Source: an uncultured bacterium
GTDB lineage: Bacteria > Omnitrophota > Omnitrophia > Omnitrophales > Aquincolibacteriaceae
DNA length: 64,000 nt
Direction of reading: 5' to 3'
NCBI GenBank assembly: GCA_964606385.1
Contig: CAZSFZ010000003.1
Location: 111,615 to 175,614, forward strand
Below are positions 12,409 through 34,542 of the stretch, piece after piece. Position numbers and translations under genes: made by a program. Under the pieces are notes generated by a model. It made no database searches. It worked only from the letters and a program-made list of their open reading frames with translations, and was not told the origin of the DNA. Positions within the stretch are counted from its first letter, which is position 1; each line of letters starts with the position of its first letter.

Positions 12409-12424
12409 AGTGGGGGTATTATAT

Positions 12425-12514
12425 ACGGGGAATGGGAAACGGGGAACGGGGAACGTGAAATTTTTAAACCACGGCGCTAAACGGTCGTTTGCCGTTCCCC
12501 GAGGAACGTTCCCC
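12425..12514. repeat. GGGGAAC heptamer inverted-repeat element (REP-like hairpin)
   Basis: acGGGGAAtGGGAAACGGGGAACGGGGAACGtg, a 33-nt AT-rich spacer, then GCCGTTCCCCgagGAACGTTCCCC, between ychF and cysE. Confidence 0.7.
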
Positions 12515-12525
12515 GCTCTTTCGAT

Positions 12526-13620: not shown

Positions 13621-13640
13621 GGCTCACTATGCTCGCGTTG

Positions 13641-13777
13641 AACGGGAAACGGTTAACGAAAAATAATCTTTATAATTTTAAAGCTCTTTTTATTTTTGAA
13701 ACGAGGCACTATAGCAGAAAATTTCTCCCCGGGAAATGACAAACGGGTAGGGCGTTCCCCGTTCCACGTTCCCCTGG
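13641..13777. repeat. GGGGAAC heptamer inverted-repeat element flanking an AT-rich promoter region
   Basis: GAACGGGAAACGGttaacg (13641-13659) and GGCGTTCCCCGTTCCACGTTCCCC (13751-13777) bracket about 90 nt of AT-rich sequence upstream of ychF. Confidence 0.65.
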
Positions 13778-13780
13778 CGG

Positions 13781-16700
13781 CTATGCCGCTCGAGCAAAGA
13801 CGATGCTGTTCTGAAATTCCTGGAGAGCCACGCGCAGCATCGCGCTCGCCATGGAAAGGTCCATGACGCCCTTTTCGGAGGGTTTCTCGTGCTGGTCCGC
13901 GTAAAGAAGCGCCATCGGTACCAACCCCGTTTCTTCCGCGATATAACGGAAATCAAAGATCTTTTTGTTTAAAGCAGAACGCGGGACGCTGCGTTTTGAA
14001 ATGCGGATGATCTTTTCATCTTTCCCGACCGGCATATCTTCCGGAGCAACCTCCGTGATCACAATGCGCCCGGCGCCTAGTTGGCGCTGAAGCCGGGTCA
14101 AACGATCCACCGCGCCCTTCGCAGAAAAAGGCTGGCTTTGATTTCCATAAAAAACGAATTTTACGTTCGGCTGCAGGATCGCCATGGTTTCGAATTCCTG
14201 TAGCTGGGCGTCCGTAAAATACGCTACATCCGCCAGGTCCGTCATGACCGTGAATTTTCCGCGCAGGTTTTCGATCGCTGTCCGCACGGACCGTTTTTCA
14301 TTAAGACCCGAAGATTGAACCGGTTCATATTCTTTGGGGCCGGTTCCGCTCGAGCGAACTTCAGACCGATCAGATTTGTCTTTCGGTGTTTTTCCTGTAA
14401 GTTCCAGCTCACGCGCTTCAGATTTCCGGACGGCTTCGATCGCGGCCTTCGCGTAGGCCTCCGTGAACGCGTCATAAAAACTCGTCCTTTGTCCGCCGAC
14501 GACCACCTGAAGGTTCCGCCCTTCCTCTGAGAAGATCTTGCTGTCGTCAAAGAGGGACCCCTGTTTTTCGGGGTGGGCATTCGCATTGAGCAACAGAAGA
14601 GCGCCATCGCTCTCAATCGCGTTCCTGACAGCGGTCTCATCGGCGTCTGCCCCGGCGCGGATCCGGATCGGAGCGGCCCCTTCACGGCGCGCCTGATCAG
14701 CCCACAACTCTTGCGCGTTCGAAAATTCTTTCCGGCTGTGATCCACCATCACGAGAGGAGCCTTCAAGTCCTTCGCGATCCTGGCGGCCTCTTTCGCCCC
14801 CCACATATCGACCGAAGGGTCCCAAGCTTCTTCCTCATAATTCTCATATTCCCTGTTTTCTCCCGGAAAACTGGATGCTGTTTTCTGCTTGATCAGGATG
14901 AAGCGGGTTTTACCCGGCTGCCATTGAGCGGCCTGCGTGTTCCACCGAGAGGGATCCCCGGACAGCTCCAGCACCCCGAGCTCCGTCTTGACGGCCTCGC
15001 TGAAGTAAGGGAAAAACTGCCCCAGGCTCATGTTCTGCCAAATGACAAGCGGCCTGTCTTTTTTCCCGGACTCATCCATCCAGCGCCGCGCCTCGAGGAT
15101 CTTTTTCAGAGCATAGGCCGCCGAAGGAGTTTCCTTTTCGATCACGTTCCAGACGGAGTAAGAAAGGCCGTCTTGCTGGACCGTGTATCGGGTCAAAAAG
15201 TCAGCCGAACTTTGATAGGCATCGGAATTTCCATCCACCCTCACTTCAGAGCGGCCGCCGACGGCAAACCGCACGATGCGAACCAAAGTTCCGTGTTCGC
15301 TTAAAACACATGGGATCGGCTGCGGCTCAAAAACATGCGGCAAGAAACGATACGCTTCCGAGGAACCCGAAGGGAGAACCGTATGAATTTCAGCAAAACT
15401 ATGCGGCTCCGACCGGACCGCTGAAAGAATATAAGGAAGTCCTTTGCCTCGGTGGGTGCTTCCGGTCATTGAATTTCCGGGCTCCACGGCCCAAAGAACG
15501 GAGGGGATCCCTTCCCCATTATCCAAAGAAAGGATCTCGATCCCTTTGCGCCCCCGGTCTTCGATCGAGCGGGCGACGATCACGCTTTGGGCCTGATTTC
15601 CCGCATGAACACGATTGATCTGGAACTCGTTAAGCACCTGCCCCATCAACTCTTCATCGGTCGAAACCTTCTCCTCACCAAGCATCCGGAAATAGACCGG
15701 CGCCGGTGTCGTCGAAAAACCTGTCTCTTCCAACAGATCGCTCAAACGCGTCCCGCGGTTAAGCTCTGAAAAACCGCTCACCCAATAACCCTTTTCTAGA
15801 AGCTCCTTCGCTGCTTCCTTGGAACCCTTCATCCACCGGCCCGCTAACTCCAGGTCTTCATGCCGCATCTCCGCCCGGTTCCGAGAATCGGGAGGGGTCT
15901 GCTGGGCGGCATAAACACCGTTGAGAGCCTCAAGAACATTGCTTTGATCGGTTTTGTCCCAGATATTGCGTGAGACAAAAAATTCCGCCAGGGGTTCCGG
16001 AAGCCCGTGATCGAGAAGACCTTTCAAGCTCGACACGACAGGACGCGTTGTGTAGGAATAAATTTTAAGATACTGAGTGATCATCTCCCGATTCGTTGCC
16101 GCATTGAACCTGGCGTCTAATAAGGCCTTTAATTCTTGCGCGGTTTTCATGAAATCGATGTCACGCGCTTCCGAACGACCCTTAGATTCAAGCCGCGGCT
16201 CAGCTGCCGGCCATTTTCTTTCTTGTCCGTTCTTCATATTACGAAGCTCAATGAATCCGGGCTCGCGCTTGATCGACTCGGGGTCCAGACCCGCTTCACG
16301 CAAAGCCGCGTCCCATCCACCGCGATCTTTATAGACCTGAAGGGCCTTGTTGTAGACCGACGATGGAGTCCGCGGCGTTCCCAACACCCCGAAAACGACC
16401 CGGGCGCCCGCTTCACTGATTTCCAGTTGGACCGTTCCTCCCCGCAGACTGAATCCTGCTTCATGAAGCGCTTTAAGGACCTGCGGGATCTTTGCTTTTT
16501 CTCCCTCCGTCCATGCCGGGATCTTTTTGGACCACCATTTAAACTGGCGCTGGGCCGCTTCAAGATCGGTCTTCGCTGCTTCATCGTTTGAGGATCCGGC
16601 CTCGCGCATTTCCGACCGTTCCGCCGTAAACCGGACGATCACCGCCGATCCTTTGAACTTGGCAATATCCTGGGCTCGCTTCCCGTCATAGGGCCGGGGA

Positions 16701-19700
16701 ATCACTTTCCTTGCGGCCGTTTCTCCTTTTCGGATCTCCGCCACCTGCCCATGAGAAATGATCGTGACATCGCCTTCCTTGATGACGCGACCCATCGCGA
16801 TCCCGTCGCCACCCCCCTCAGATTTCTGCGCCAGGAAACCGCCATGGACCAAGGCTATATCCAATTCACCCTTCGTGTTGATAGGAAATCCTTCGCCGCG
16901 ATCGATAGCGGCCACGTATCCGGTACCGGTGGCATCATCATAATCCACCACAAGAGCACCCTGCTGATGGGCATACCAATCTACATTTTCTCCGAGGTAG
17001 TTAGCCGCCATTCTCGCATTTCGAATGAATGAATAATTTTTTCCATAGCCCCTCTTGCGAAGATTCTCCGTCGCCTTCCCCATCCACTGATATCCCTCTT
17101 CAGTTCCGTCGATCAGCCCGGCCCATGCGACCACCGCTTTTTCAAACTCCGTACTATCGCCGATGAATACAAATCCTTCTTTCCCGGTTTGAACACTCTT
17201 CACATCGAGCGGAACAGGTTTGTTTCGAAGGTTGAGTTGATCCACTTTCTCCCAAACATCCGTTACCTTGGCCATAACCTCTTCCGGCACGATATCTTTG
17301 TTCCGAGCCTCGGAACGCTTTTTCGTGAGGAGGATGGCCTCGAGACCGGTGCCGCGGGAATTGCGAGTGCCCGCAAGGTCTTTGCCATTCGCCCACAGGA
17401 ACACATCTTTTGCCCCTCTGGCAATGAACTGCTGAATTACCTCCGGCAGATATGCGCCGATGAATTTGGAATCGCCCGCAAGGGTGTTCCCGACCAATAG
17501 TTGTTTCTTTCCGCGCGGATCTTCTGCCAGACCGATAAAGCTGTGGGGGTAATATGCAGCGATCAAACGAATCTCGATTTCGCGACCGTTGATGATCCGA
17601 AACTCCCCTTCGTCGAGTTTTTCTTTCTCTTTGTCTCTTCGCGCATCAAAATCTTTGTATTCCCATTCCAGATATTTCTGACGGATCGCCTCAACCGTTA
17701 ACCCTTTTTTCAATAACGGTTCGAGCGAAAGAACGATCGGCTGTCCCATGAGCGCCAACTTGATAAGTTCGGGGTCTCGATAAAGCTCCCCCAGATCATC
17801 GCTGAACCCAAGTTCGATATTCTGTTCGACTCCGTCCCGTACCATACGGAAAAACGGTAGCCGGAAAATATGGCGAAGATCATCGAATTGTTCATGAAGA
17901 TTCTTGAGATTGTCTTTACCGTTTTTTACGATCCGCTGCCCATAGACCGCATAGCGAATGCCCGTCACGGGATCTCCCCGTTCATCAAAAATACCGCGGG
18001 TGCCATCCGGCTTCATGAGCTGGAGACTCATGACGGAGAGCGAACCATCCTCCCCTGTGACCAGCATGTCATAGACGCGGCCCGCTTTCGGGTCGCGTGC
18101 CGAAGAATATACTTTTCCATCCGCCACGCCGACAAACCAGTCATTGATCCCGAGATTTCCGTTCGGAAGCACAAGCTCGACTTTCTCATCGGAATGTGTG
18201 ACTTCATAGGTTTCAATGAATTGAGAAACAGTCTTCTTGAACGCCTCGACCCGGGGATCATGAGACCCGTAGGGTTTTCCCTCGCGGTCCACATAAAGCG
18301 GCCCATGGACCCTGTCCCGGAAAAGCCGGCTCACGCCGTCAGCTTTGAACCATTGTTTTGTCGGATCTGTTTCGTCCGCGCCGCTCACGCTCAAGACAAC
18401 CTTGATCTTGTCGGGATCAAAGGCCTCTATTTGGGGCTCTACTTTCTGGAACTTCGATGTCCGTATCTCGGACCTCTTCGCTTCATCTTTCTCATTTTTC
18501 CGGATGCGAACATCCCAGCCATATCGATGCGCGGGAGCATCGCTCAAAATACCGCCTCCTCGCAATTTCAGGATGGCCTGAGTAAGTTCTTTATAATGTG
18601 GAATGCTTAATTGCGGGAGCCCTCCCGGGAAACTACTCCCCCGGTCTGTAAACGCGAGTTCGCGCGGCGTGCCGGGGACATGATAGTAGGCATGATCATC
18701 GGTAATAAAATAGCCGCCTTGCGGAAGCGCATCCTGGAGTTCTAAAATAAATCCTGGGTTCTGCGCGTAATCCAGGGGGACTTCCTCACCGGCGCGTTGA
18801 TAGTAACCGTTGAAGCCGGATCCCAAAAGTTCCCGGTAAGCATAAGACCGTGTGATATCGGCATCCACGAACAAAACCGTCCGAGACGATAAGGTTTTCC
18901 CTAGAGGATGTTGCCATTCGAAATCGAGACCAAGTGACTGTTCGTAAGAAGTGATCTGAAAATTTTTAACTCCCAAAGCGTCCAATTCCACGGTCATTGC
19001 GATAAGCCGCTCCAACGGACCCCTTAACCATTCTCCGACAGAATAACCAAAGACTTCTTTATTATAACGATATCGATCCGCTAATTCCGATGCCAACCAG
19101 CGTGCCCGGGTCCCCGGATCCAGGATCTGTCTGGGGTCCATCGGAATTGCTCCGGTCAACGCGTCTTTGAACCACCCGAAGTAATCGGAAATGAACAGCC
19201 CGCGCGTCATATTCGTGCTCAAAAGCGCGTTCGAAAGATCCACGCCGGCTGCGCCATAGATCAATCCGTAATCCTTAAGCGAAGGATTCACCACGCTCAA
19301 AATCATCCAGTCATGGAGAATATAAGCCGGATCCAAAAGATGGCTCACTTCGGATCCCGCCGCCTTTGCTTTCAACCCTTCCCAATTGGCAAATCTTTCC
19401 GCATCTCTCACTTCTGAGCGGTTGGTATTTGCGGCTTGTTCCAATACATCACGAACGTCTTGATTGGCAGGATCGTGAAGAAGCGGGGCGAGGAGATCGC
19501 TGGAAAGCTGGTCGTGGCCGAGGCTCATCAGTTCATCATAAGCGTATTCATGAATGGACCAGACTTCACCAAGACCGTTCTTGGCTTTCTGCTGCGCCTC
19601 AAGCCACTGTTTGAAACCGGCTTCCCCCAACTCGGCAAGCTTCGTCTCTAAAAGTTTTCCCGTAGCCCGGATCTTTTGGATCTCTTCGATGCTGGCAAAA

Positions 19701-25700: not shown

Positions 25701-28700
25701 AAAAAACGGATGTCCGTCAGGATCAAGGTCGCCAGAACTTCCGTTGAAATATTCCGGAGCTTTGCCTGGGCCTGAAGCCATTCCCAAAATGTGCCGGAAG
25801 CTTGCGAAAAAAAGATCCTTGTTAAGGGTTCCGTGGCCTGAACAGGATTCCAGAAAATGTCGGGGAGGAACGGCTCCGGCGCGTTGAACCAGGGAGACGG
25901 ATCCTCACCCGTGATCCCGATCCCGCCGGACCAATGGATCATTTTCCGCGCGTCGCTCGCGAAATTCTTGTCCGAAGGATCCGTCATCGATTCCAGGAAA
26001 AGCCTGCGCCAGTAAAGCGCCTTTTCCCCCAAAACTTCGCGCAGGAGGCTTCTCGCTCCCGAAGACGTTCTTTCAAGGAGTTCCCGTGTCCGGACGATCG
26101 AGGCCTCGAGGGCTTTTTGCCGGGCCTCGGTCTTCCACGGCTCATCAGGAATGTCCGAAGCCCGCACTTCCGAACGGCTCGCAGGATCAAGAGGTTCTCC
26201 CCGCCGGCGCCGTTTTTCACTGTCCAGGTGCCAGGCGTGCGCAAAGGCCTTCACCGCTTTCATATCAAGCCGTCCTTCTTCCGCATGCCTGACAAATTCG
26301 CCCACCGCCTTGTGAGCCGTGATCCCGTTCCGGTAAACACGTTCTACTGTCATCGCATCGAATGAATCCGCAACGGCAATGATCCTTGCTTCCACCGAGA
26401 TTTCTTTTCCGATCAGCCCGCGCGGATACCCCCTGCCGTCCATGCGTTCGTGATGAGAGAGAACGGTCTCGCGGACTTTTTCTAGGCCGGGGATCGAGGA
26501 GAGGAGATCCGCGCCTTTTCGGGAGTGTGTCTTCATGATGATCCATTCCGGGTCTGAAAGAGGATTGGGATTTTTAAGGATCTCTTCGGGGATCTCGAGC
26601 TTCCCGATATCATGCAGGAGAGCCGCTTGGGCCAATGTCAGTGAATGAGGCAGCCTCAATTCTACGGCTGTCATGACCGCAAGACGCATGACCCTCTCCA
26701 TATGACTTAAAATCTCTTCGTCCTTTTCCCGGACTTTTTCCAGAAGCTCCCGGGCCTGGGGAGGCAAAGACTCCACAACCTCCTGAACCGTCCATTGTTT
26801 ATGGGAATCGTCCGTTTCATCGGTGGCTGGCGCCAGAATATCCCTAAGAAGGGTTATTTGATAATCGTCCCGGAAATGATACCCAAGCTTAACAGCCCCG
26901 GATCGTTCCCTCTTTTCCAGATACCGATCATAGAAATCCCTGGATGCCTCACTAAAGGCTTGCCAGAAAACTTCCCGGACCCCCGCCTGGAACATCTGAC
27001 TCAAAAAGACATCCATGAGCCATGTGCCGCGTCCGCGAAGACCGTCTTTCACGGTCAGGATCCTCACAAGTTCCACTTTCTCACGGTCATCGCTCAAACG
27101 GCCATAAATACCTCCCGCGATCCTTCCTTGCGCGTCGATAAAGATCCAGGCTGGGTACCGGGTCAGATTCCTTTCCCACTTATCGGAAGAACCGCTTCGC
27201 AAAACGCCGTCCTGCTGTTTGACATGAAATGCTTCTGCCTCTAATTCACCCAGAACAGCGGCGACCTCCCGGAGTTGTCGCGCATCCAACTCCAAGGCTT
27301 TAACATTGACAATTTTCCCCAAGAGCGGGTCCGAAACCACGACCGCCGCTTCAGGAATTTCCATCTGCAACTGAAAAACGGATTTCGTTGCCGCTACTGA
27401 GATAAGCCTGTCAAGGGTGGCTACCAGAGACTGATATTGGGTGAAAACTTCACGGTGCCCGCCGAGGCCGTATTTTCCGATCACGACCCGACGCAGATTA
27501 TCCTTTTGAAATTGCGCTTCCGCGGCTACTTGCTCGGGCTCTTCGGCGGCCATCGGGATAAGAGAATCCAGTTTTTTCTCAAGCACTCCGAGAAGCCCTT
27601 TCACGATCGCGATCTTCTGCGCTTCGGAAAGATCTTTTTTGTCTTCGTCGCCTTCTGTCCGGACCTCGGAGCGGATCCGGAGATGTTCCAAAAATCTGCC
27701 TGTTAAAAGATCTTGATCCAGGGGCTGAAGTTTTTTAACCCAAGCCCGCTTGAGCGTCAGGCCTCCCTCCCAAGGGATCTTCGTTGAAAGGTCCGTAAAG
27801 ACATAGCCGAAATCCGGCATGTTCTGATCATAGACAATGCGGGCCAAGTCGGGATCCAGGGCTTTCATGTAGAGCCGTTTTTTCATGCGCTCCGCCGCGG
27901 GGCTGCCCCCCATCCACTTGAAAAGCGAGGGGATCATCGGCCGCATCAAAAAGGTCGCGAAGATCTGAACCGCGCGGAAAAACCGGGTCAGGGCATCGCT
28001 CTTCCCATAATGCTGAAGCCTCGCGATGACTCCCGGAAAGGCCCGTTCCGGCCAGCGTTCGAGGATGGTTTCGCTCCCAGGGCTGACGATCTCGGTGACG
28101 CCCGGAAGGGTCCGGGCATACGCTTCCAGGACAAGGCGCATGACTTTCCGCCAATCCTTGTACCTCGTCCGCGTGGTCTCATCTTTTTTGAGGAACGGAT
28201 AGATATCGCTTTGGACTTCCGCCACGACAAGCTGGTGGCCGCGCACATAACAGCGGGCAAAAGCAAGCGATCCCGGCACATGAATGTCCGTGAATTGCCC
28301 TTCCAGAACTTCTGAGGTATGAATGTGTTCCTTTTCCTCATCCGCCGGAAAGAACCCGATCACCTTCGGGTCTTTGGCTGTACCGTACATCCGCCGCGTT
28401 GCTTCGAAAGGAACTTCGCGCGCCTCTCCGCTGAAAAGATCCATTTTGGCTTTTCCGATCTTGAAGCGTTCCTGACCTTGCGGGATATTGATCGTCGCGT
28501 AAAAATCAACATTTCTCGTTTCGGAACGGTTAAAAAGTTTTTCCTGGTTGGCTAAATAAACCACGAGAGGAAATTCTTTGGAATCACGATAACGAAAAGT
28601 GGTCACATCCCATGTCAGGGAACCGCTCAACCGGTCCTCGAAAGTTTTCTTACGATCTTTCTTGGAGGGGTTGGGGTCTCTGAAGATCTTTCCTTTCGCG

Positions 28701-31700
28701 GCGCCTACGTACCGGAGCTGTTCTCCTTCGATTCCTGCGATGACAAAATGCATCACCTCCTGATCGCTGGGGTACATGGGGGGGGTCCGGACCACGACCA
28801 CATCCCCTGTTTTCAGGCCATCCTGTGGTATTTTATCGTATACCTCAAACTCCCCGGGGTTTTGAACCGCATATTTCATCCATTCAAAAGAGCCCTTTTC
28901 GGTAAATTCAGTAACAGAAGATTGTTCTGAAAGCGTTTTGCCAGCCTCTCCGAGGCGGGTGAGACGGACGGCTCGTTGAGGAAATTTGAAGCGAATGGTG
29001 GTTTTGTGACCGTCAAGACCCGGAGAAAGCGCTTCCATGGTACCGTCGTGGGCTTGCGTAACGATTTGGGACATAAGAACACCTATGCCGCCCCGGCTTA
29101 AGATAAAACGTCCGGATCCTTCTCGCGCGGGGCTTTTGGATACGATCTTGAAATATTCCCCGTAGAGGTCCTCGGGAACGAGAGAGGCAATGCCGATGCC
29201 GTCATCGGAAACTTCAAGATAAACATGATCTGCGTCTTGCAAAACCTTAAGATGAACCAGCCCCTCCCGGTCACCGCGGCCGTAAGCTGCCAGTCCGTTC
29301 TTGAGCGCTTCCGCGAGAAGCTCATGAGGTTCCCAGCTTTTCAAATCATGGACAATCCTCCCCCAAGTCCATTCCGGATGCCTTCCAAGCACTTCTTGAG
29401 CTCCTAGGCCGATGATATGATCGATCGGTTCAGTTGCCCATTTCAACCCCACGCGGTCCATGAAGTCCGTTAACATTTCACCTATCAATCCTTCGAGGTC
29501 CGCCTGGGTGTCCTGGAGGGTGGGCGCCGGCCTCATCGAACGGCTTTCGAAAACAACCTCTCTTGTCTCAGATCGTTTTGAGTGATGTTTTTCGCGGCTG
29601 ACCGAAGCATCCTCATAAAAAACCTCTTCGACATCCGCGATCTGCCGATGATCCTTATCCAGAATCGCCCTGAAATCCCCCCCGTTCCCGTGCACGATCC
29701 GTTCGATCTTGGCATAGATCCAAGATGCGGTTTCTGCGGCGGGCCATGCGATGCCGCTGGTATAAAAATCGTTTTCCAAGAAAAATTTTCGAAAGATCTC
29801 CTCGCCACTCCTCCGTCGGACTTCGGAACGAATTTCCTTCGCGGCGCTCATGGGCAATTGGGGCAAAAAGGGTTCGAGTTCGGCCTTCGCCGACCGGATC
29901 ACTTCTTCCTGCTGCCCAGGACGGGTGTCGAAATACCGGCTAAGACCACTTTTATAAACTTTGAACGCTTCCGGGGAAGCCGAAGCTGTGCGCAGGCCAT
30001 GGAGCATTTCCTCTTCAGTAAGCTCTTTTTCAGATCCCGGGTCCTGAATGGCCGTTTTGAAGACCGCTTCCATGAACCCCATATTGCCCGGGAAGATATC
30101 CGGACGTACCTTTGAATACGGTTTGATGTAAATCGCCGCGGGCCGGTTTTTAAAAGGCGCCCGCATGAGCAAGAGATGGGGCGTATCCAGCAACTTCAGG
30201 AAATCCGTGATCAGAGCCGCGTACTTTGCGACACCGCTCGACGAGGGCCCCTTCACGACAAACCACGCTCCTTCATCCGTTGAAAGTTCCGCAACAAAGG
30301 GCCCTCCTTCCTGGGCCGGAATGAATATGTCCTCTTCCTTGACCAGCTGATCTTCGATCCATGTGCTGTCCGAAACAAAACCGTGGGCATGTTGGGGCTT
30401 ATCTCCCATTCCGACAGCCGTCCCTCCATGGAACGCAAGCGCGACATTTCCGACCCCGAATCGTTCAAGCGCCTTCATCATGATTAAAAGGGACCGGCGG
30501 TCGACTGTTTGGTTGTGAAGCTCTCGATGATTAATGGCAAGGACGAAGTGATACGGCAAAAACGGCATATAACTGCGCAGGATGTGGACGTGAAGCCCAT
30601 CAATATTAAAATCGAGAAGCTTCTGGTGGGGATACTTGGCGGCAATTTCCTTCCAAGGCATGCCGGCGGCAGAGCGATCGACCGGTTTTGTAACAAAACC
30701 CGGAGCATTTTTGTAGAACGCTATCCACGCAACAACTTTGCGGAGAAATCCCCGGGGGCCGGGGATGGCCTCCGTTCTGACATCTTTGAGGTAGGAGAAC
30801 CCCGCGCCCCCCGCCCCCGTATAGGCTTCGGTTGCTTCGTAGCGTTTTTCAAACTCACGGAATACCGCGCTTGTAAAATGTTTGTCTTTTTCCTCTTTAC
30901 CGGCCCCGGGCAATTCGGAATGCGCTTGAGCCTGGGAAGTCTCGTCGCGCTGCGCTTTTCGAAGGGACCTGATGATCGAGGCACGTTCATCGCCGGAGAG
31001 CTCCGGGATTTTTTTATAAACATCAATAATTCGATCGAAAAGGCTTTTCGAAACCGTCTCGGTCTCAAGAGCTTCTTTGATTTCACCCATGATCGCGTCA
31101 GGAACATAGGAAAAGCCCGCGAATTCTGGAAATCCGGGACGCTCGACCGGAAAGAGGGCTGAGGGAGTACGCGATCTCGGGAAGATATAGAAGGTCCCTC
31201 CGCTCAGAATCACATTGTGCGGGATATCGGCGCTTCGGAGAACCCCGATATATTTTAATGCTTCTGCGCCCGCGGTTTGAGGGTCTTTCCCCGAAAAAAC
31301 CACGGCTCGGGCGCGATAATCGGTCAATTGCTCCACACGCACATCCAAGGGGGTCACCGCTATTTCTGTCCTGGCGGTTTGGTCCAGCCGCGAAGCTCCT
31401 CTCGAAACCGGCACAAGCATTACTGAAAAATAAAGTTGCCTGAATCGGGCGCCGGCAATCATGCTGTCAAATCCTATATAGACCCGGTACTGACCGCCTT
31501 CAGAAAGAGCGCGAACTATGGCCGCCATATATTCAAAAGCTTTTTGATTCATGACTTGAGGCAGGTTCGCGGACATATCAGCCACCACATAAAAATGATT
31601 AGGCCTGGACCCTCGTCCGGCTGTTAGAATGCGAACGCCGTTCGAAATCCCCTCGATCGAAACAGATTTCTCAAAAAGGTCGCTCCTGTCACCGTCAAGC

Positions 31701-34231
31701 AAGCCTTCGTAACCGGGTACGGGTCGTTCCCGGTCCGATGAGTGAGTCGCGGACCATTGCGCCATAAAAAGGTCCTTGAGCCCCGGGTCATCCATATCAC
31801 TCATGAGATAGGTCGGCTCCATTTCTTCAAACAACGCGGGCGGCAGCAGTAAGCCTTCGGATTTTTTCGAGAGTTTTTTCGAGCCTTGCACGCCACGCGC
31901 CCGTTCCAAAATCTTCACGGAAAGCGGTGCTTCAGTGAATGGTTCTTCCGTTTTCTTCCGCTCCATGCCCTGGGGCTTAAGCTGTCTGACCTCCGAACGG
32001 GCTTTTTCGCTTTTTACACTTTCAAAACGAATGTAATCCCGGATCGCCTGGTCAGTCCGGGGCCAGACCTCCAGCATCTTGAAGATCCCGCGCCTGAACT
32101 TTTCATAATCATTGCCGGGCGCAGCCAAACCGGAATTAAAAGCAGCATTCAGTAAATAGGGAAGCTGTATATCGTAAGGAACGGGGTCAGCTTGTGTTCC
32201 CTGATATTTGTCGAGAGTAGTCTTGTAAGCTGTAAAATCCTCTTTAAGGATCAACCGGAACATTTCCGAGTTTCTTGAAAACGTTTGCCGGATCTCTTCG
32301 AGCGCTTTGTCGAGATCTTGTAAATTCGCCTCTTTTTCCCCGAATTCCCAAAAAAGCATTTCGAGGATCCCGGAGAGGATCTGTTCCTTATTCGCAAAAA
32401 GATGGGTGCTGAAAACGCCCAGAGCCGTTTGGGTATCCAATACCTGCCCGTTCATGATATAAACCGTCTTTTTCAGGCGAGCATGCTTCCCAATCCACAT
32501 TTTAAGGCTTGAAAAATACTTTATAGCGGAAGAAGCCCGCTTAAGAAGATCGGGTTCATCCCAATCCGGCTCAGACGGCCACACCTCTTCCCTCATTTCC
32601 GCGCGTTGAGAGGAACCTTCCAATGCGCGATCCATTTTAAGCACAAAATCCTGGGACGGCTCGCCGCGCAAAGGTCCGGCGGCTTCAAGAAGACGGGATA
32701 ACGCGGGGGCGTAATCCATGGTCACAGCGCGTTGCGGGCAGGTGCTTTCACGGGCCACGCTCTCCGGACCATGCGCCACGCCCGCCTCACCGCTTTTCGT
32801 GTCCCGTGTCCCGTGTCCCACAGCCCAATCTTTTTCAAAATCATGTTTTCCCCCGCTCATGAGCATGCGGTAATAATCCTGATGCCGTTTGCTGGGGGCG
32901 CCGATCGCGGGAGAAAGAATGACGTAGCCGATCCCTTTTTCTTTCAGGATCTTTTTAATGGCCTCTTTGTGGAAACCGCCGAACACAAGCGCCGCGGCCT
33001 TGGCTTCCGGGTCCTGGAGAAAACCGTCGAAGATCTTCCCGATCGAAAGGTCGCGCTTCATCGCGAGCTCATAGAACCGGGTAGCGTCGGTGATGAGCCC
33101 CTCCCAGGAACGGAACATCACGATCGAACGGCCCGTTTCCTGAGCAAGAAACCGGGCCACGTCCTCGGTCTTGAGGCCTTCGAGCGATCCTTTGAGCTCG
33201 GTGAATTCCTCGTGGCTCAACTCGATCGCATTCATTTTTTCAAGCAGCAAAACGCTTTGGTAATAACCGTAAGTTTTTCTGTCCCGCTCGGAAGAGAGGC
33301 CGGACTCAACGATCTCCCCTTCCAGCTGTTCGATCTCTTTCAGGAGTGCCATGAGATCGATCTGCTGGATCTTTTTCTCATCACCGGAAAGCAACTTTGA
33401 AATTTCGGGGAATGATGAGCGGGGAACGTCCAGCGCTTTCGTTTCCCGTTCCACGTTTCCCGTTCCACGGGTTTTCCATGTTCGCTGGAGATATTCCACG
33501 AGCGGCATCTGCCCCTGCTGGTACCGCTCCTTCAACTTCAACCATTCCTTCATTTCCTTGGGAAAATTTTTATCGATGAGTTTTTGGAGTTCCTTGCGGA
33601 TGAGCCAGATATCGCGGGTCACCTCCCCTCGGTTTTTTGCGGCTTGTTCGTAAGCGCGGATGTTCTCGAGGTGCAGCGCGATCGAATCAGCGCCCACAAG
33701 CTGAAAGTCGCTTTGCGGAGAACGGGGAACGGGGAACGCTGAGCGATCCGTTAACCGTTCACCGTTAGCCGTTTCCCGGGAGGACGGTTCTGCCGACCGA
33801 TTAATGTGCGCATACTCCGCCCCGCCGACACGGAGCTTGTCCATCAGGTAGTAAGAGAGCTTTTCCTTGAGCGCAGGGTCGTCGATCGCGCCAAAGATCT
33901 TGTCCGTCGGGACGGGGCCTTCGTAGCCTTCTTCATAAACGGTCTTGATCCCGTATTCTTTGACCAGGTAGCGGACCATGCCGGCGATATTTTCTTGCGC
34001 TTCGAGGGAATCATGCGCGTCCTGGATATAGACAAGTGTTTTACCCGACTTCCCGGCCGAGGTCTCCATCAGGCTGCCGAGTTTCTCGGGCAATTGGAAG
34101 GACGAGCGAAGTTCGGCTCCCGGCATCACGGGCGACAATGATTCGAGAGGCATAGCGATCGCGTTCGTCGTCACAAAACAAACGACGACTACCAAGCTGA
34201 CGATCCGTTTAAAGCCAGAACCTCTTATCAT
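13781..34231 (-). CDS. giant multidomain protein, 6,816 aa. Signal peptide plus internal TM segments and many fused enzyme modules separated by a recurring RSE[VI]R motif
   Basis: Uninterrupted 20,451-nt ORF. N-terminal signal peptide (MIRGSGFKRIVSLVVVVCFVTTNAIAMP). GHKL ATPase motifs (EVSDDGIGI, GGIGV) near nt 29190. GNAT-like motif. HD-GYP (HHERMDGRGYP) near nt 26420-26465. HExxH (VVIHEGTHL) near nt 24590. FHA-like (YRSTNGT) near nt 23300. SAM MTase motifs (VLDLMSGK; LDVGTGSGIFAALA near nt 20705-20765). Nudix box GGHVQTRQGYRDTVKHEIVEELGL at nt 19817-19888. GAGAGGT RBS before the ATG at 34231. Confidence 0.8.
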   Translation of the reverse strand: MIRGSGFKRIVSLVVVVCFVTTNAIAMPLESLSPVMPGAELRSSFQLPEKLGSLMETSAGKSGKTLVYIQDAHDSLEAQENIAGMVRYLVKEYGIKTVYEEGYEGPVPTDKIFGAIDDPALKEKLSYYLMDKLRVGGAEYAHINRSAEPSSRETANGERLTDRSAFPVPRSPQSDFQLVGADSIALHLENIRAYEQAAKNRGEVTRDIWLIRKELQKLIDKNFPKEMKEWLKLKERYQQGQMPLVEYLQRTWKTRGTGNVERETKALDVPRSSFPEISKLLSGDEKKIQQIDLMALLKEIEQLEGEIVESGLSSERDRKTYGYYQSVLLLEKMNAIELSHEEFTELKGSLEGLKTEDVARFLAQETGRSIVMFRSWEGLITDATRFYELAMKRDLSIGKIFDGFLQDPEAKAAALVFGGFHKEAIKKILKEKGIGYVILSPAIGAPSKRHQDYYRMLMSGGKHDFEKDWAVGHGTRDTKSGEAGVAHGPESVARESTCPQRAVTMDYAPALSRLLEAAGPLRGEPSQDFVLKMDRALEGSSQRAEMREEVWPSEPDWDEPDLLKRASSAIKYFSSLKMWIGKHARLKKTVYIMNGQVLDTQTALGVFSTHLFANKEQILSGILEMLFWEFGEKEANLQDLDKALEEIRQTFSRNSEMFRLILKEDFTAYKTTLDKYQGTQADPVPYDIQLPYLLNAAFNSGLAAPGNDYEKFRRGIFKMLEVWPRTDQAIRDYIRFESVKSEKARSEVRQLKPQGMERKKTEEPFTEAPLSVKILERARGVQGSKKLSKKSEGLLLPPALFEEMEPTYLMSDMDDPGLKDLFMAQWSATHSSDRERPVPGYEGLLDGDRSDLFEKSVSIEGISNGVRILTAGRGSRPNHFYVVADMSANLPQVMNQKAFEYMAAIVRALSEGGQYRVYIGFDSMIAGARFRQLYFSVMLVPVSRGASRLDQTARTEIAVTPLDVRVEQLTDYRARAVVFSGKDPQTAGAEALKYIGVLRSADIPHNVILSGGTFYIFPRSRTPSALFPVERPGFPEFAGFSYVPDAIMGEIKEALETETVSKSLFDRIIDVYKKIPELSGDERASIIRSLRKAQRDETSQAQAHSELPGAGKEEKDKHFTSAVFREFEKRYEATEAYTGAGGAGFSYLKDVRTEAIPGPRGFLRKVVAWIAFYKNAPGFVTKPVDRSAAGMPWKEIAAKYPHQKLLDFNIDGLHVHILRSYMPFLPYHFVLAINHRELHNQTVDRRSLLIMMKALERFGVGNVALAFHGGTAVGMGDKPQHAHGFVSDSTWIEDQLVKEEDIFIPAQEGGPFVAELSTDEGAWFVVKGPSSSGVAKYAALITDFLKLLDTPHLLLMRAPFKNRPAAIYIKPYSKVRPDIFPGNMGFMEAVFKTAIQDPGSEKELTEEEMLHGLRTASASPEAFKVYKSGLSRYFDTRPGQQEEVIRSAKAELEPFLPQLPMSAAKEIRSEVRRRSGEEIFRKFFLENDFYTSGIAWPAAETASWIYAKIERIVHGNGGDFRAILDKDHRQIADVEEVFYEDASVSREKHHSKRSETREVVFESRSMRPAPTLQDTQADLEGLIGEMLTDFMDRVGLKWATEPIDHIIGLGAQEVLGRHPEWTWGRIVHDLKSWEPHELLAEALKNGLAAYGRGDREGLVHLKVLQDADHVYLEVSDDGIGIASLVPEDLYGEYFKIVSKSPAREGSGRFILSRGGIGVLMSQIVTQAHDGTMEALSPGLDGHKTTIRFKFPQRAVRLTRLGEAGKTLSEQSSVTEFTEKGSFEWMKYAVQNPGEFEVYDKIPQDGLKTGDVVVVRTPPMYPSDQEVMHFVIAGIEGEQLRYVGAAKGKIFRDPNPSKKDRKKTFEDRLSGSLTWDVTTFRYRDSKEFPLVVYLANQEKLFNRSETRNVDFYATINIPQGQERFKIGKAKMDLFSGEAREVPFEATRRMYGTAKDPKVIGFFPADEEKEHIHTSEVLEGQFTDIHVPGSLAFARCYVRGHQLVVAEVQSDIYPFLKKDETTRTRYKDWRKVMRLVLEAYARTLPGVTEIVSPGSETILERWPERAFPGVIARLQHYGKSDALTRFFRAVQIFATFLMRPMIPSLFKWMGGSPAAERMKKRLYMKALDPDLARIVYDQNMPDFGYVFTDLSTKIPWEGGLTLKRAWVKKLQPLDQDLLTGRFLEHLRIRSEVRTEGDEDKKDLSEAQKIAIVKGLLGVLEKKLDSLIPMAAEEPEQVAAEAQFQKDNLRRVVIGKYGLGGHREVFTQYQSLVATLDRLISVAATKSVFQLQMEIPEAAVVVSDPLLGKIVNVKALELDARQLREVAAVLGELEAEAFHVKQQDGVLRSGSSDKWERNLTRYPAWIFIDAQGRIAGGIYGRLSDDREKVELVRILTVKDGLRGRGTWLMDVFLSQMFQAGVREVFWQAFSEASRDFYDRYLEKRERSGAVKLGYHFRDDYQITLLRDILAPATDETDDSHKQWTVQEVVESLPPQARELLEKVREKDEEILSHMERVMRLAVMTAVELRLPHSLTLAQAALLHDIGKLEIPEEILKNPNPLSDPEWIIMKTHSRKGADLLSSIPGLEKVRETVLSHHERMDGRGYPRGLIGKEISVEARIIAVADSFDAMTVERVYRNGITAHKAVGEFVRHAEEGRLDMKAVKAFAHAWHLDSEKRRRRGEPLDPASRSEVRASDIPDEPWKTEARQKALEASIVRTRELLERTSSGARSLLREVLGEKALYWRRLFLESMTDPSDKNFASDARKMIHWSGGIGITGEDPSPWFNAPEPFLPDIFWNPVQATEPLTRIFFSQASGTFWEWLQAQAKLRNISTEVLATLILTDIRFLQFLTVCYFAKKYDRFFPGMPVTIAAKTERAEATAKHLQSSLQKSPDLFQLFRSLRTQLPIEKEKNNAAEEVFYQHGRAITLGAELIKKAFSEGVYRSGALELASTTVGTAIDFPNVHENEIDAFHLEEVLRWVKANLDLNVLFTLPPAALAAKKPNVPDTDVSINGRSEIRTLLAAETKFTELLEVLKSVVSDKAKRKAKANELVAALRKGRIHSYEDVREVLGPDVSIAKLKTLFEISGLQSRAPPATSRKGFVLKASLAVSLAVTIAIAAFFVFQMTSSDTDRIARRFNRIAATVMDPAARESIQDLIKEFREHAKIDETRIDPLSIHPFIRQQANKAGELSGIQVNKDFALEMPQMIVKYVVIHEGTHLRNAHLRYATNQGFEDFMKRLNALRPAKGTVDPNEILKDPEILRAVFRTYASQIEDEKLAYQAEDEAMMADIRSAGSHEAFVKKMFEGLGDGNEDRRRNGIVVGYMEGVGQRWDAEKGTPSEDGTQAYVLKVLLNTPYLEQGVGHLHYLRNVYLQTVYAMTQGTADAGMIQLTGDLDRPFRVTDYKRLAAWTYEQAQKLGVHPQTETRVDHHEKRSEVRSAGIPARFTPLALKNAPKMQTIAWEGKTYNFVAISVMLQSQDQKNLAFLLVEHMNPELRKDFLDMLSPELKKTVLNYLHSPASEPTMILQDRQLRGEDFTAMFFGRVILGVGEHVETSPVQFEIEPLADGRIAFRIYSRGDADTYEVDFNKTYMVARDHVPEDKIQAAELFTVDSEFVTSGRHFSFRVFRDDEGNLWITIEDYRSTNGTVLSAEIYPATVAYEGRDQDMVRYSELLKLILASLGDLLKADDKKPVKDDPIHHYKHAVDETCRLYQESAEFGELEKLRKEVIQEVLFANVVGQAVDRTNYALEALEKLLQEDRISIWLPVLEVAVSYLPAGKMNPKFFRLLQVISSEKIRQAPTKLKRDVMRILSGVAGNPTEFSNQPPLEHEMTKTIRLDIIPGQDMTPKNRSEVRTDFVSKWRDAQRRKMLESPDLRLLNYLVHRTGFSPEQKKAYIRLWELMSLSVPLFAISKTVLSTLSTALVATHPLFAFVPVSIWFFMSPFLRLVFLIAPFTWIYKLRVNTLFWANFFPAGGAFIAVPSQLFELVRDEYRRYPGMSFKQLRDLHHQVIAHVSAMPAEGTHSFSREALLARSSELTFNLLEWRSAQHASGTKVKNLFPDDISELLSGSGPRPRSEMREGSQSDFRDVVNETPYLEWAPGQMIEQKLATLLPEGAKVLDLMSGKFSYVPAASQASEVIGVGLNDKEMALNKKLTSYRVQDVNEKPAFPEEWKGRFDAVVMTSGAAYAEDLPSLFRAAAETLKEGGTLFVAYNPDYYSPEATAVWKGMKADEKAKAVTDALEAAKSFSVPRHERKSYVGRFDLSQDMDMIFAVKNIRSEIRTDVKLQNPDYVFLFGHIGLNFDRSVAGVRGGFDIIEGRIEPLKMRSFEKWLLDLNRHSSESEVMMPSRRIGAEIFLAQKNAEETENQFFERVLIGESSKIRASLIENSDGQSLAIESPSFVLIVPVMSEAEVRRNQKNPNDAWDPWAYPDEAQAAAQMQKAGELFPGKPVFMNGAPIFYTEDGFMNVRGRLMSKNRVSDKFAALLGGMELKTGFKTLDVGTGSGIFAALAVQKGSGQVTATDTDDLSLELAKWNVRRLGLQDKVRVAYGDPFTGEAVGVDEKFDLILASLPLQHGAAAAKQLTLRFLRELPAHLDPNGKALVFLYQGTMSRYMRRRTDLTKIQDPDCEKVFQASLAPLDFNARGVSSIAFYHQADEDHIYTIFEIARSKTVSEPIRPETKGVQPKLRQQLEKIKEDPSAGLDSAKIQDILTAIENGSLKLKGEDVDIIKSENGIETVIGAIDRNIAHRYGLMHRVPTTFIMTPEGKFLLQRRAHNIAEPMRLSLFGGHVQTRQGYRDTVKHEIVEELGLPEDWKIDDSKLQTIRTEGAFASPEWDGKNRERRSHYVYFASIEEIQKIRATGKLLETKLAELGEAGFKQWLEAQQKAKNGLGEVWSIHEYAYDELMSLGHDQLSSDLLAPLLHDPANQDVRDVLEQAANTNRSEVRDAERFANWEGLKAKAAGSEVSHLLDPAYILHDWMILSVVNPSLKDYGLIYGAAGVDLSNALLSTNMTRGLFISDYFGWFKDALTGAIPMDPRQILDPGTRARWLASELADRYRYNKEVFGYSVGEWLRGPLERLIAMTVELDALGVKNFQITSYEQSLGLDFEWQHPLGKTLSSRTVLFVDADITRSYAYRELLGSGFNGYYQRAGEEVPLDYAQNPGFILELQDALPQGGYFITDDHAYYHVPGTPRELAFTDRGSSFPGGLPQLSIPHYKELTQAILKLRGGGILSDAPAHRYGWDVRIRKNEKDEAKRSEIRTSKFQKVEPQIEAFDPDKIKVVLSVSGADETDPTKQWFKADGVSRLFRDRVHGPLYVDREGKPYGSHDPRVEAFKKTVSQFIETYEVTHSDEKVELVLPNGNLGINDWFVGVADGKVYSSARDPKAGRVYDMLVTGEDGSLSVMSLQLMKPDGTRGIFDERGDPVTGIRYAVYGQRIVKNGKDNLKNLHEQFDDLRHIFRLPFFRMVRDGVEQNIELGFSDDLGELYRDPELIKLALMGQPIVLSLEPLLKKGLTVEAIRQKYLEWEYKDFDARRDKEKEKLDEGEFRIINGREIEIRLIAAYYPHSFIGLAEDPRGKKQLLVGNTLAGDSKFIGAYLPEVIQQFIARGAKDVFLWANGKDLAGTRNSRGTGLEAILLTKKRSEARNKDIVPEEVMAKVTDVWEKVDQLNLRNKPVPLDVKSVQTGKEGFVFIGDSTEFEKAVVAWAGLIDGTEEGYQWMGKATENLRKRGYGKNYSFIRNARMAANYLGENVDWYAHQQGALVVDYDDATGTGYVAAIDRGEGFPINTKGELDIALVHGGFLAQKSEGGGDGIAMGRVIKEGDVTIISHGQVAEIRKGETAARKVIPRPYDGKRAQDIAKFKGSAVIVRFTAERSEMREAGSSNDEAAKTDLEAAQRQFKWWSKKIPAWTEGEKAKIPQVLKALHEAGFSLRGGTVQLEISEAGARVVFGVLGTPRTPSSVYNKALQVYKDRGGWDAALREAGLDPESIKREPGFIELRNMKNGQERKWPAAEPRLESKGRSEARDIDFMKTAQELKALLDARFNAATNREMITQYLKIYSYTTRPVVSSLKGLLDHGLPEPLAEFFVSRNIWDKTDQSNVLEALNGVYAAQQTPPDSRNRAEMRHEDLELAGRWMKGSKEAAKELLEKGYWVSGFSELNRGTRLSDLLEETGFSTTPAPVYFRMLGEEKVSTDEELMGQVLNEFQINRVHAGNQAQSVIVARSIEDRGRKGIEILSLDNGEGIPSVLWAVEPGNSMTGSTHRGKGLPYILSAVRSEPHSFAEIHTVLPSGSSEAYRFLPHVFEPQPIPCVLSEHGTLVRIVRFAVGGRSEVRVDGNSDAYQSSADFLTRYTVQQDGLSYSVWNVIEKETPSAAYALKKILEARRWMDESGKKDRPLVIWQNMSLGQFFPYFSEAVKTELGVLELSGDPSRWNTQAAQWQPGKTRFILIKQKTASSFPGENREYENYEEEAWDPSVDMWGAKEAARIAKDLKAPLVMVDHSRKEFSNAQELWADQARREGAAPIRIRAGADADETAVRNAIESDGALLLLNANAHPEKQGSLFDDSKIFSEEGRNLQVVVGGQRTSFYDAFTEAYAKAAIEAVRKSEARELELTGKTPKDKSDRSEVRSSGTGPKEYEPVQSSGLNEKRSVRTAIENLRGKFTVMTDLADVAYFTDAQLQEFETMAILQPNVKFVFYGNQSQPFSAKGAVDRLTRLQRQLGAGRIVITEVAPEDMPVGKDEKIIRISKRSVPRSALNKKIFDFRYIAEETGLVPMALLYADQHEKPSEKGVMDLSMASAMLRVALQEFQNSIVFARAA

Positions 34232-34542
34232 TCCGTCTGTTACCTCTCTTTTTTCTACGATTTGAATCTCTAAAAAATACGGCCGTATTTTCGATTAAAC
34301 ATCTTTCAAAAAGACTTGAGTTGCATGCTTGCGCCTTTGTAAATGGATATTTTTAGTTTTAAGAATAGATTCTCAAAATTTCGAACAGCATAGTCCTTAA
34401 AATGTAACCTCCCAAAAGCTCTTTTTCAAGAGAGGAGCTGTTTTTATAGGACTTATTTTGAAATAAATTCGATGTTTTATTGACTTTGTTTCATAATATG
34501 AATATATTATATGATTATTATGTATATATAGGAGGCTACATT

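Follow-up and report, generated by a model that had tools for sequence, protein, structure and literature searches.

A giant multi-enzyme gene of an uncultured Omnitrophota bacterium is divided by a conserved pentapeptide delimiter and may encode an exported polyprotein precursor

The giant gene, its cassettes and its delimiters

The stretch of DNA analysed in this study (the window) comprises 64,000 nucleotides of contig CAZSFZ010000003.1 from an uncultured Omnitrophota bacterium, and the gene under study, hereafter the giant, occupies positions 13781-34231 of its minus strand. It is a single open reading frame (ORF) of 6,816 codons with an ATG start and zero internal stops, preceded about 10 nt 5' of the ATG by the ribosome-binding-site-like sequence GAGAGG. 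The product follows a grammar shared with the other members of its family: a signal peptide, a head module of about 430 amino acids (aa), a variable series of unrelated cassettes, a delimiter pentapeptide in polar linkers, and a tail ending in [A/S]-A. This grammar (delimiter, TIKI-like head and AA tail) turns what could be called a fusion of modules into a defined organisation.

The initial annotation of the window had described the same stop-free frame at the same coordinates, a signal peptide at its N-terminus, transmembrane (TM) segments near nt 24870-24935 and 22300-22600, and AT-rich DNA at 34232-34542. All were recovered: the frame is coding throughout, the signal peptide has an AIA/MP site, the TM segments lie at nt 24872-24928 and 22277-22543, and the GC content of the AT-rich region was measured at 29.6 %. 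The features, with modules numbered M1 (the head module) to M21 (the terminal module), are as follows.

13781..34231, minus strand: giant ORF (6,816 aa, 767 kDa, pI 6.2, 7 Cys)
34232..34542, no strand assigned: divergent intergenic region, AT-rich, candidate promoter (311 bp, 29.6 % GC, GAGAGG ahead of the ATG)
34154..34231, minus strand: Sec-type signal peptide or signal anchor, aa 1-26 (KR-rich n-region, h-region from aa 10 to about 26-28, AIA/MP)
32837..34114, minus strand: head module core, aa 40-465 (TIKI/EreA/ChaN-type alpha/beta fold with a large helical insert; conserved D71-x-H73, E100-E101, H142, R393, GGFH421)
28973..29326, minus strand: HATPase_c (GHKL ATPase), M5, aa 1636-1753 (Pfam E 4e-9; PDB YycG)
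26924..27166, minus strand: GNAT acetyltransferase-like, M7, aa 2356-2436, borderline (Pfam 20.6 bits against a cut-off of 20.7)
26258..26728, minus strand: HD-GYP cyclic-dinucleotide phosphodiesterase domain, M7, aa 2502-2658 (Pfam HD_5 E 2e-37; PDB 5z7c E 6e-25)
24872..24928, minus strand: internal TM helix, start of M9, aa 3102-3120
24575..24637, minus strand: HExxH zincin-like motif, M9 (HEGTH, aa 3211-3215; weak YgjP-like metallopeptidase match, E 0.02)
22277..22543, minus strand: hydrophobic cluster (2-4 TM helices), M11, aa ~3897-3985 (homologue of M11: first cargo module of L001)
21557..21928, minus strand: class I S-adenosylmethionine (SAM) methyltransferase, M12, aa 4102-4225 (Pfam E 1e-6)
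20432..20818, minus strand: MTS/PrmA-type SAM methyltransferase, M13, aa 4472-4600 (Pfam E 2e-11; NCBIfam; PADLOC mad2 E 1e-24)
19610..19969, minus strand: NUDIX hydrolase domain, M13, aa 4755-4874 (Pfam E 5e-8)
13784..13864, minus strand: conserved C-terminal tail, aa 6790-6816, ...MLRVALQEFQNSIVFARAA (ends hydrophobic-x-hydrophobic-x-x-[A/S]-A)

Codon-position GC (0.60/0.40/0.59) was flat across the thirteen 500-codon blocks examined and agreed with that of the adjacent YchF, PepA, RsmB and RlmN genes; being uniform and equal to that of flanking housekeeping genes, it shows that the entire frame is coding. The Logan contig SRR15237811_5136 (29,257 bp) corresponds to window 8129-37385, and was 100 % identical across the compared window 8129-23620 (15.5 kb); the gene called on it has exactly the length of the giant product, 6,816 residues, and an identical Pfam set. 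Contig SRR32414324_186637, from another SRA run, was 100 % identical across window 32969-37320. Giant metagenomic ORFs are a classic site of misassembly, and the base-by-base comparison spanned window 8129-23620 and 32969-37320, with window 23621-32968 outside it. Even so, the probability that the giant is a chimeric assembly, or several genes merged through missed stops or frameshifts, is close to nil: two independent SRA-run assemblies are identical over 19.8 kb, one of them calling the same gene; codon-position GC is uniform; and head, tail and delimiter density are those of a family with full-length relatives of 6,000-7,650 aa. Misassembly, an initial concern that is now largely cleared, was ruled out by the two identical assemblies and the codon statistics, and the giant is one genuine, intact gene.

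The giant had also been described as non-repetitive and distinct from adhesin or RTX giants, which held on inspection. Its DNA contains one trivial 30-bp tandem repeat and no further tandem repeats, and BLASTP of its 21 modules against each other returned no similar pair at E ≤ 1e-3. A repeat adhesin or RTX-like giant was ruled out, as the protein has no Ig-like, cadherin, TSP3 or haemagglutinin arrays and no internal similarity. An Rfam scan of the window returned two tRNAs and nothing else.

Profile searches brought back six to seven domains: HATPase_c, a borderline GNAT, HD-GYP, two SAM methyltransferases, NUDIX and a weak HExxH peptidase motif. In Pfam, 16 modules were without a match. Of the original claim of at least ten unrelated catalytic or regulatory modules, the unrelatedness was borne out and the number was not, the remaining modules being orphans. 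Pfam searches of the giant found no HEAT, glycosyltransferase, dockerin/TSP3, C39, S8 or SecA-like domains and no RTX/HemolysinCabind or Peptidase_C80 (cysteine protease domain, CPD) match, and neither a chymotrypsin-like nor a papain-like protease domain was detected in it.

A relaxed Pfam search run on ten orphan modules had the weak YgjP-like match in M9 as its sole yield. In this module HEGTH lies about 90 residues past the TM helix, and the region (aa 3102-3219) is a possible second, membrane-anchored protease of the giant. The match to mad2 of a methylation-associated defence system (aa ~4479-4649, in two stretches) probably reflects generic methyltransferase similarity; PADLOC gave only this methyltransferase-level match in the giant and no sign of a defence system. 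Signatures recognised by eye and unconfirmed by profiles were FHA-like '...STNGTVL' (M10, aa ~3600-3645) and HIT-like 'QHAHGF' (M3, aa ~1270-1285). Two GHKL-like signatures, 'DRGEGFP' (M16, aa ~5770-5815) and 'DNGEGIP...GKGLP' (M19, aa ~6235-6265), were likewise without Pfam support.

The giant contains 20 copies of the delimiter, R-[S/A]-E-[V/M/I/A/T]-R (2.9 per 1,000 aa), against 0.14 expected, with a maximum of 3 copies in 2,000 shuffles. Across all six frames of the window outside the giant, two copies were found, both in non-coding frames. The first copy stands at aa 543, immediately after the head, and the copies split the giant into 21 modules of 85-723 aa, that is, the head module plus 20 cassettes. 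The copies are listed below, the last four entries with a comparison to the homologues P0053 and P0055.

32591..32605, minus strand: delimiter 1, RAEMR, aa 543-547 (directly after the head, predicted coil)
31985..31999, minus strand: delimiter 2, RSEVR, aa 745
29816..29830, minus strand: delimiter 3, RSEVR, aa 1468
29561..29575, minus strand: delimiter 4, RSETR, aa 1553
28514..28528, minus strand: delimiter 5, RSETR, aa 1902
27659..27673, minus strand: delimiter 6, RSEVR, aa 2187
26162..26176, minus strand: delimiter 7, RSEVR, aa 2686
25187..25201, minus strand: delimiter 8, RSEIR, aa 3011
23930..23944, minus strand: delimiter 9, RSEVR, aa 3430
22682..22696, minus strand: delimiter 10, RSEVR, aa 3846
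22007..22021, minus strand: delimiter 11, RSEMR, aa 4071
21401..21415, minus strand: delimiter 12, RSEIR, aa 4273
19406..19420, minus strand: delimiter 13, RSEVR, aa 4938
18461..18475, minus strand: delimiter 14, RSEIR, aa 5253
17303..17317, minus strand: delimiter 15, RSEAR, aa 5639
16604..16618, minus strand: delimiter 16, RSEMR, aa 5872
16163..16177, minus strand: delimiter 17, RSEAR, aa 6019
15863..15877, minus strand: delimiter 18, RAEMR, aa 6119 (RSETR in P0053, flanks diverged)
15239..15253, minus strand: delimiter 19, RSEVR, aa 6327 (same in P0053)
14411..14425, minus strand: degenerate or doubtful delimiter, KSEAR, aa 6603 (lost in P0053, RAEMR in P0055)
14354..14368, minus strand: delimiter 20, RSEVR, aa 6622 (same in P0053, indel-rich linker)

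None of the Pfam domain envelopes in the giant contains a delimiter, and each domain lies wholly within one module. A chance or compositional origin of the delimiter was ruled out by the shuffles, both for the giant and for the family described below. Its 15 nt draw freely on all six Arg codons, four Ser codons and the two Glu codons, and the flanking bases are unconserved. This free use of synonymous codons indicates that selection acts on the peptide and that the delimiter is not a DNA repeat or recombination site, an origin that was ruled out on this ground. P0053, which is 62 % identical to giant aa 6050-6816, keeps three delimiters (6119, 6327 and 6622) amid diverged, indel-bearing linkers.

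The family, its exchangeable cassettes and the locus

A search of a 5.8-billion-protein collection with M1 (aa 1-547) returned 52 homologues (E ≤ 1e-46), the named ones nearly all from Omnitrophota ('Candidatus Omnitrophica'). In each of them M1 is N-terminal, after the signal peptide, and is followed by differing domains (methyltransferase, NUDIX, peptidase M23, glycosyltransferases, APH kinase, cytidylate kinase and HEAT repeats). A delimiter stands right after M1, and again downstream, in 36 of the 52. An exhaustive HMMER scan of 1.84 billion cluster representatives found the head in 8,458 proteins (6,955 at E ≤ 1e-10), always N-terminal, in proteins of up to 7,652 aa. The search for homologous giants that the initial annotation had proposed thus uncovered a family, with the head in 8,458 cluster representatives, and the Omnitrophota-type lineage that it had suggested was upheld both by the named head homologues, of which all but two in this collection and in the GTDB genomes below are from Omnitrophota, and by YchF, the neighbour of the giant, which is 91-93 % identical to YchF of Omnitrophota metagenome-assembled genomes. 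Its view that a protein of this size and composition is very rare did not carry over to Omnitrophota, where, with more than 8,000 head clusters and a published multi-enzyme class, such proteins are neither rare nor new.

Among GTDB representative genomes there were 154 M1 loci, several per genome, and nearly all named ones were from Omnitrophota. Eighty of these were fetched with 10-kb flanks; most M1-headed ORFs extend past the flank. The M1-headed ORFs of the 80 loci hold 442 delimiters in 218 k aa, against 5.3 in shuffles. The few delimiters outside head ORFs lie in adjacent long ORFs of the same strand that end in the tail, and family genes therefore form tandem arrays. Such arrays were seen upstream of head-bearing ORFs at L023 3-7799, L034 2-9691, L072 2-9679, L033, L040, L051 and L066, where the [A/S]A tail of the preceding delimiter-bearing ORF ends about 250-350 nt before the next head. 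Delimiter-rich ORFs without a head all extend past the N-terminal edge of the fetched locus. At L018 9989-18526 a family gene is split into a 509-aa head ORF and two delimiter-bearing ORFs, which is likely a frameshifted or pseudogenised member or a sequencing error.

For delimiter and tail statistics, 118 cluster representatives, none of them used earlier, were taken. They hold 747 delimiters in 382 k aa against 8.6 in shuffled sequences, an 87-fold enrichment; the first delimiter lies at a median of aa 527, and spacing has a median of 325 aa, with 16 % below 60 aa (doublets). Position 2 is S in 613 and A in 198 family copies, and position 4 is L, V, M, A or I. Within ±10 residues of the delimiter, family-wide, the polar fraction is 0.62-0.65 (0.56 in bulk) and the hydrophobic fraction 0.24-0.26 (0.33 in bulk). 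In an AlphaFold model of aa 1-760, delimiter 1 lies within a coil (aa 540-559) in a low-confidence region and the second delimiter at the end of a low-confidence helix. This last placement, and the position of delimiters between domains in polar segments, would suit a purely structural linker, in which the pentapeptide is a partner-free helix cap or salt-bridge element that insulates domains. Such a role is improbable: four of five positions are near-invariant across thousands of unrelated junctions while the flanks are free, which is not normal for linkers, and ordinary multi-domain proteins encoded in these genomes lack the delimiter.

The family tail of about 25-30 aa consists of an amphipathic helix followed by hydrophobic-x-hydrophobic-x-x-[A/S]-A-COOH, and the last residues of the giant (...SIVFARAA) fit this signature. 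Of 25 complete ORFs in the fetched loci, 24 carry the tail, and AA or SA closes 94 of the 118 full-length cluster representatives (80 %). Many members have as their tail just the last delimiter plus 7-19 residues, e.g. RSELRSYQASLVIEMAA; in the giant, RVALQ is a decayed final delimiter, at a place where P0055 has RSEIR. The ssrA tag ends in ...LAA, and non-polar C-termini are recognised by tail-specific proteases (Tsp/Prc) and by ClpX. The family tail likewise ends in small uncharged [A/S]-A after hydrophobic residues; however, it is gene-encoded and family-specific and, including its amphipathic helix, spans about 25-30 aa. The likeness is a lead only. With head, tail and a family-typical delimiter density (the family has about 2 per 1,000 aa) all present, the giant is a complete, typical, large member of the head-delimiter-tail family.

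Individual modules were traced by BLASTP against family ORFs. M2 matches L005 aa 1059-1260, between delimiters at 1051 and 1256, and its homology block in L006 starts just past a delimiter. The M10 match in L065 ends exactly at a delimiter, M11 matches the first cargo module of L001, M19 was found at three different positions in three proteins, and the terminal module M21 matches terminal modules only. Modules are thus shuffled between members with breakpoints at the delimiter, and module order is free. The cargo of ten other full-length members comprises SAM methyltransferases, GHKL ATPases, GNAT, HD-GYP, NUDIX, cytidylate and uridine kinases, Maf, pseudouridine synthase, 2'-5' RNA ligase, radical SAM, protein/APH kinases, glycosyltransferases and inositol monophosphatase, almost every family being present in just one of the ten. 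By their domain assignments these are enzyme families that are normally cytoplasmic.

The giant lies among YchF, hexapeptide transferase, PepA, RsmB, RlmN and CorA, in the order CorA-RlmN-IVP-551-aa gene, giant, YchF-hexapeptide transferase-RNaseH-TauE-PepA-RsmB. Window 13621-34542 was compared with L087 (ENA ERZ18628054) and L084/L085. The flanks of the orthologous locus are collinear, with 70-80 % nucleotide identity on both sides. In a genome with a 93 % identical YchF the same position holds a giant of 10,502-10,513 aa, whose last 3,260 aa have only a generic HD domain in common with the 6,816-aa giant, contain nine delimiters and end in ...LQDYLNQQVVAWAA. In a genome with a 90 % identical YchF there is no giant, and the homologue of the 551-aa gene is followed by 333 bp and then YchF. 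As far as these alignments reach, cargo turns over completely at the orthologous locus while the grammar persists.

Shuffling with breakpoints at the delimiter, the hypervariability of this locus among relatives and the many hypervariable cargo loci reported for Omnitrophota would also be expected if the delimiter were a DNA-level cassette junction, the translated scar of a recombination site comparable to integron attC. This explanation is highly improbable, since the 15 nt vary synonymously with no conserved flanking nucleotides, and since the peptide is kept within the diverged DNA of P0053. Judged from these sequence comparisons, the delimiter is a five-residue linker site under peptide-level purifying selection between exchangeable, unrelated cassettes.

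The divergent 551-aa gene (window 34543-36198, plus strand) encodes a protein with a signal peptide and Asp-box-like SxDxGxTW motifs (HDAGKTW, GDGGYRW) and without a Pfam match at E ≤ 1e-3. It is conserved beside the 23S_rRNA_IVP gene in relatives, giant present or not, and is therefore not functionally tied to the giant. Further along, at least eight radical-SAM genes are densely clustered in window 43257-63470 (minus strand), and SPASM/4Fe-4S domains occur in several of them. The cluster includes an 849-aa protein with B12-binding, double radical-SAM and SPASM domains (50264-52813) and a GT2-radical-SAM fusion (53918-55840); a 908-aa ABC ATPase (60744-63470) comes after the radical-SAM genes, and GC falls to 0.47 past 56 kb. 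From its gene content the cluster looks like a peptide- or sugar-modification gene cluster.

The head module, export and a possible processing pathway

The head was modelled with AlphaFold from a 53-sequence alignment (predicted local distance difference test, pLDDT, 82.7; predicted template modelling score, pTM, 0.80). The model comprises an N-terminal helix, a six-stranded alpha/beta core and a helical insert of about 220 aa (aa 184-406), and has the parallel beta-sheet core between helices that marks the TIKI/EreA/ChaN/TraB fold. In a 46-sequence alignment D71-x-H73, E101 (= H73+28) and H421 (GGFH) are each at least 90 % conserved and H73 is invariant. A 2His/2Glu signature defines the active members of the superfamily; in RRSP it is E3900-x-H3902, E3930 and H4030, and in Bcr135 the pair H85/E113 likewise places His and Glu 28 residues apart (PMC6254334). 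The first acid of the head is Asp where the superfamily signature has Glu. From the modelled fold together with the conserved His-28-Glu...His signature, the head is very probably an active hydrolase of the TIKI/EreA/ChaN-type superfamily, which includes sequence-specific endopeptidases (TIKI, RRSP) and also esterases and a haem binder. Relative to the TIKI/TraB-PrgY/EreA/ChaN/GumN superfamily, it differs in having no sequence-profile membership, in its insert and in the Asp. DUF5694 was touched by 2 of 53 head-family members (E 0.005).

Two stand-alone heads, P0022 (L088 8001-9296, 431 aa) and P0028 (L090 168-1508, 446 aa), have no cargo, delimiter or tail and lie among unrelated neighbours; each gene was found in two assemblies. 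They could be trans-acting versions of the head enzyme.

Among 134 family N-termini the net charge was +3.9 before and -0.2 after the hydrophobic segment, with the bias in 98 % of them. This charge bias points to an N-in/C-out orientation, and by predicted topology the head and the chain that follows are exported. Cysteine makes up 0.10 % of the giant and 0.13-0.15 % of the family (382 k residues, P0177-P0294), against 1.26 % in twelve neighbouring proteins, a roughly 9-fold depletion. The only neighbour that is comparably poor in cysteine is the signal-peptide-bearing 551-aa protein.

As in polyproteins, several independent units are joined in the one ORF of the giant, with a conserved short site at each junction. 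The following steps are proposed. The delimiter would be a short linear recognition site for one common factor, acting in trans or in cis. This factor would most economically be an endopeptidase, and the precursor would be cut into about 20 separate enzymes outside the cytoplasm. The TIKI-like head would be that peptidase, acting in cis or else in trans, a mode to which the stand-alone heads point; no other enzyme is constant across the family, and site-specific endopeptidases occur in its superfamily, which makes the head the prime suspect. Because the freed enzymes need ATP, SAM, acetyl-CoA or nucleotides, they would act within the host or prey cell, in line with the epibiotic or predatory way of life proposed for the phylum. 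Our confidence falls in this order, from the common factor through the endopeptidase and the head as peptidase to action in host or prey.

For our preferred reading of the giant as an exported polyprotein precursor, in which one common factor reads the delimiter and an endopeptidase cuts there, we regard the balance as about even; cleavage is what we infer from the placement and conservation of the site. The assignment of the cutting to the head is put forward tentatively.

In the main rival reading, the delimiters instead belong to an uncleaved chain, a single membrane-associated string of beads. The pentapeptide would there serve for docking or modification, with a chaperone, a part of the translocon or secretion machinery, a kinase or some other modifier as its partner. 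Evidence from a short linear motif alone cannot tell binding from cutting, the internal TM segments and the literature view of giants as membrane-anchored multi-enzyme proteins fit such a chain, and docking of the motif into the head was not predicted. Ala takes the place of Ser at about a quarter of sites (613 S, 198 A), which speaks against an obligatory phospho- or glyco-acceptor. The close doublets, the delimiters before a terminal peptide of 7-19 aa and the free module order are more typical of processing sites, and there is no evident reason for twenty unrelated enzymes to stay tethered. We therefore hold an uncleaved chain to be possible but rather unlikely.

Several observations weigh against the polyprotein precursor and the role proposed for the head. 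The AlphaFold model of head, delimiter and M2 leaves the motif undocked, as a coil of low pLDDT. The assignment of the head fold is structural only: Foldseek against PDB was weakly supportive (E-values 0.05-0.16), and the head of the giant had no Pfam match at E ≤ 1 and no PDB sequence match at E ≤ 10. Many members of the TIKI/EreA/ChaN superfamily are esterases or haem binders and not peptidases. Delimiters are few or lacking in some members of the family (none in L038 and L055, one in P0201), and cassettes can therefore stay fused. By the predicted topology, the TM helix at aa 3102 and the cluster at aa ~3900 may place part of the chain on the cytoplasmic side, and that part would then be beyond the reach of an exported protease. 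The genes flanking the giant include no secretion-system genes and no genes of the type II secretion system-like (T2SS-like) or PilZ kinds, and exported enzymes would still need a route into the host cytoplasm.

Related systems and meaning

Nielsen and Lui define a 'multi-enzyme' class 1 of Omnitrophota giants by methyltransferase/HATPase/GNAT/HD content with a signal peptide and TM segments (Nielsen & Lui, 2026; bioRxiv 10.64898/2026.06.07.730766). In giants at large, post-translational cleavage has been suspected while cleavage points were lacking, and N-terminal regions were without identifiable domains (West-Roberts et al., 2023; bioRxiv 10.1101/2023.11.21.568195). One of these two giant-gene studies reported that the missing cleavage points prevented the splitting of giants for structure prediction. 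The present giant shares with class 1 and the Archaeovorins the phylum, a signal peptide and TM segments, many Pfam families of which none dominates, and sequence-unique cargo, and the 'module 1' content of class 1 (methyltransferase, HATPase_c, GNAT, HD and NUDIX) is also that of the giant. Its 6,816 aa are below the published thresholds of 10 or 30 kaa (thousand aa); the class 1 length of at least 10,000 aa is reached at the orthologous locus (10,502-10,513 aa), with the same delimiters and tail. Archaeovorin- and Dockerin-type giants differ from it by their HEAT, glycosyltransferase, dockerin/TSP3, C39, S8 and SecA-like domains and by flanking T2SS-like and PilZ genes. The giant is thus a further member of a known phenomenon, and its grammar is new as far as the searchable literature goes, in which, including three Omnitrophota preprints, no prior description of the delimiter motif, the polyprotein model, the head fold or the tail was found.

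Like MARTX toxins, the giant is a very large secreted protein with exchangeable, unrelated and strain-variable effector enzymes, and the MARTX effector RRSP has the same TIKI fold as its head. MARTX toxins carry glycine-rich RTX repeats, are cut after Leu by an in-chain, inositol hexakisphosphate-activated cysteine protease domain, and leave by type I secretion with no N-terminal signal peptide. The giant, in contrast, has no RTX repeats or CPD match, 7 Cys, a Sec signal peptide and an Arg-flanked five-residue delimiter. Polyproteins of picorna-, flavi-, poty- and nidoviruses resemble it in that one ORF encodes many unrelated proteins with short conserved junction sites and, between some of the sites, small spacer peptides. 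Their protease is encoded within the polyprotein, for which the head of the giant is a candidate counterpart; unlike them the giant is cellular, chromosomal, set in a housekeeping neighbourhood and Sec-exported, with an unfixed module order. In fungal KEX2-processed repeat proteins and in PatE-type precursors of cyanobactins, which are ribosomally synthesised and post-translationally modified peptides (RiPPs), a short recognition sequence is repeated between product units. There the product units are 6-100-aa peptides that mostly repeat one another, whereas the units of the giant are full enzymes of about 100-720 aa, all different.

Omnitrophota giants are an open puzzle; the two recent catalogues cannot say whether each is one protein or many. 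The delimiter, enriched at least 80-fold, the catalytic-type head and the tail give this question a concrete, testable form. The delimiters are candidates for the cleavage points that earlier giant-gene work called missing, and they provide a practical rule by which thousands of dark-matter giants can be parsed into domain-sized units.

The broadest interpretation is a polyprotein strategy of Omnitrophota, in which thousands of exported, TIKI-headed precursors would be cut at R-S-E-x-R, exchangeable enzymes would be delivered to host or prey, and the AA tail would serve as a completion or recognition signal; as part of it, the cargo would be nucleotide-, RNA-, sugar- and signalling-modifying enzymes. 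Such a strategy would be to cells what polyproteins are to viruses, would generalise the MARTX principle far beyond those toxins, and would allow each giant to be parsed computationally into its products by means of the delimiter. Taken as a whole this interpretation is possible but doubtful. Were the delimiters shown to be processing sites, polyprotein expression would be established as a cellular strategy, and a large set of exported, cysteine-free enzymes that evolve fast and probably serve episymbiosis or predation would come to light.

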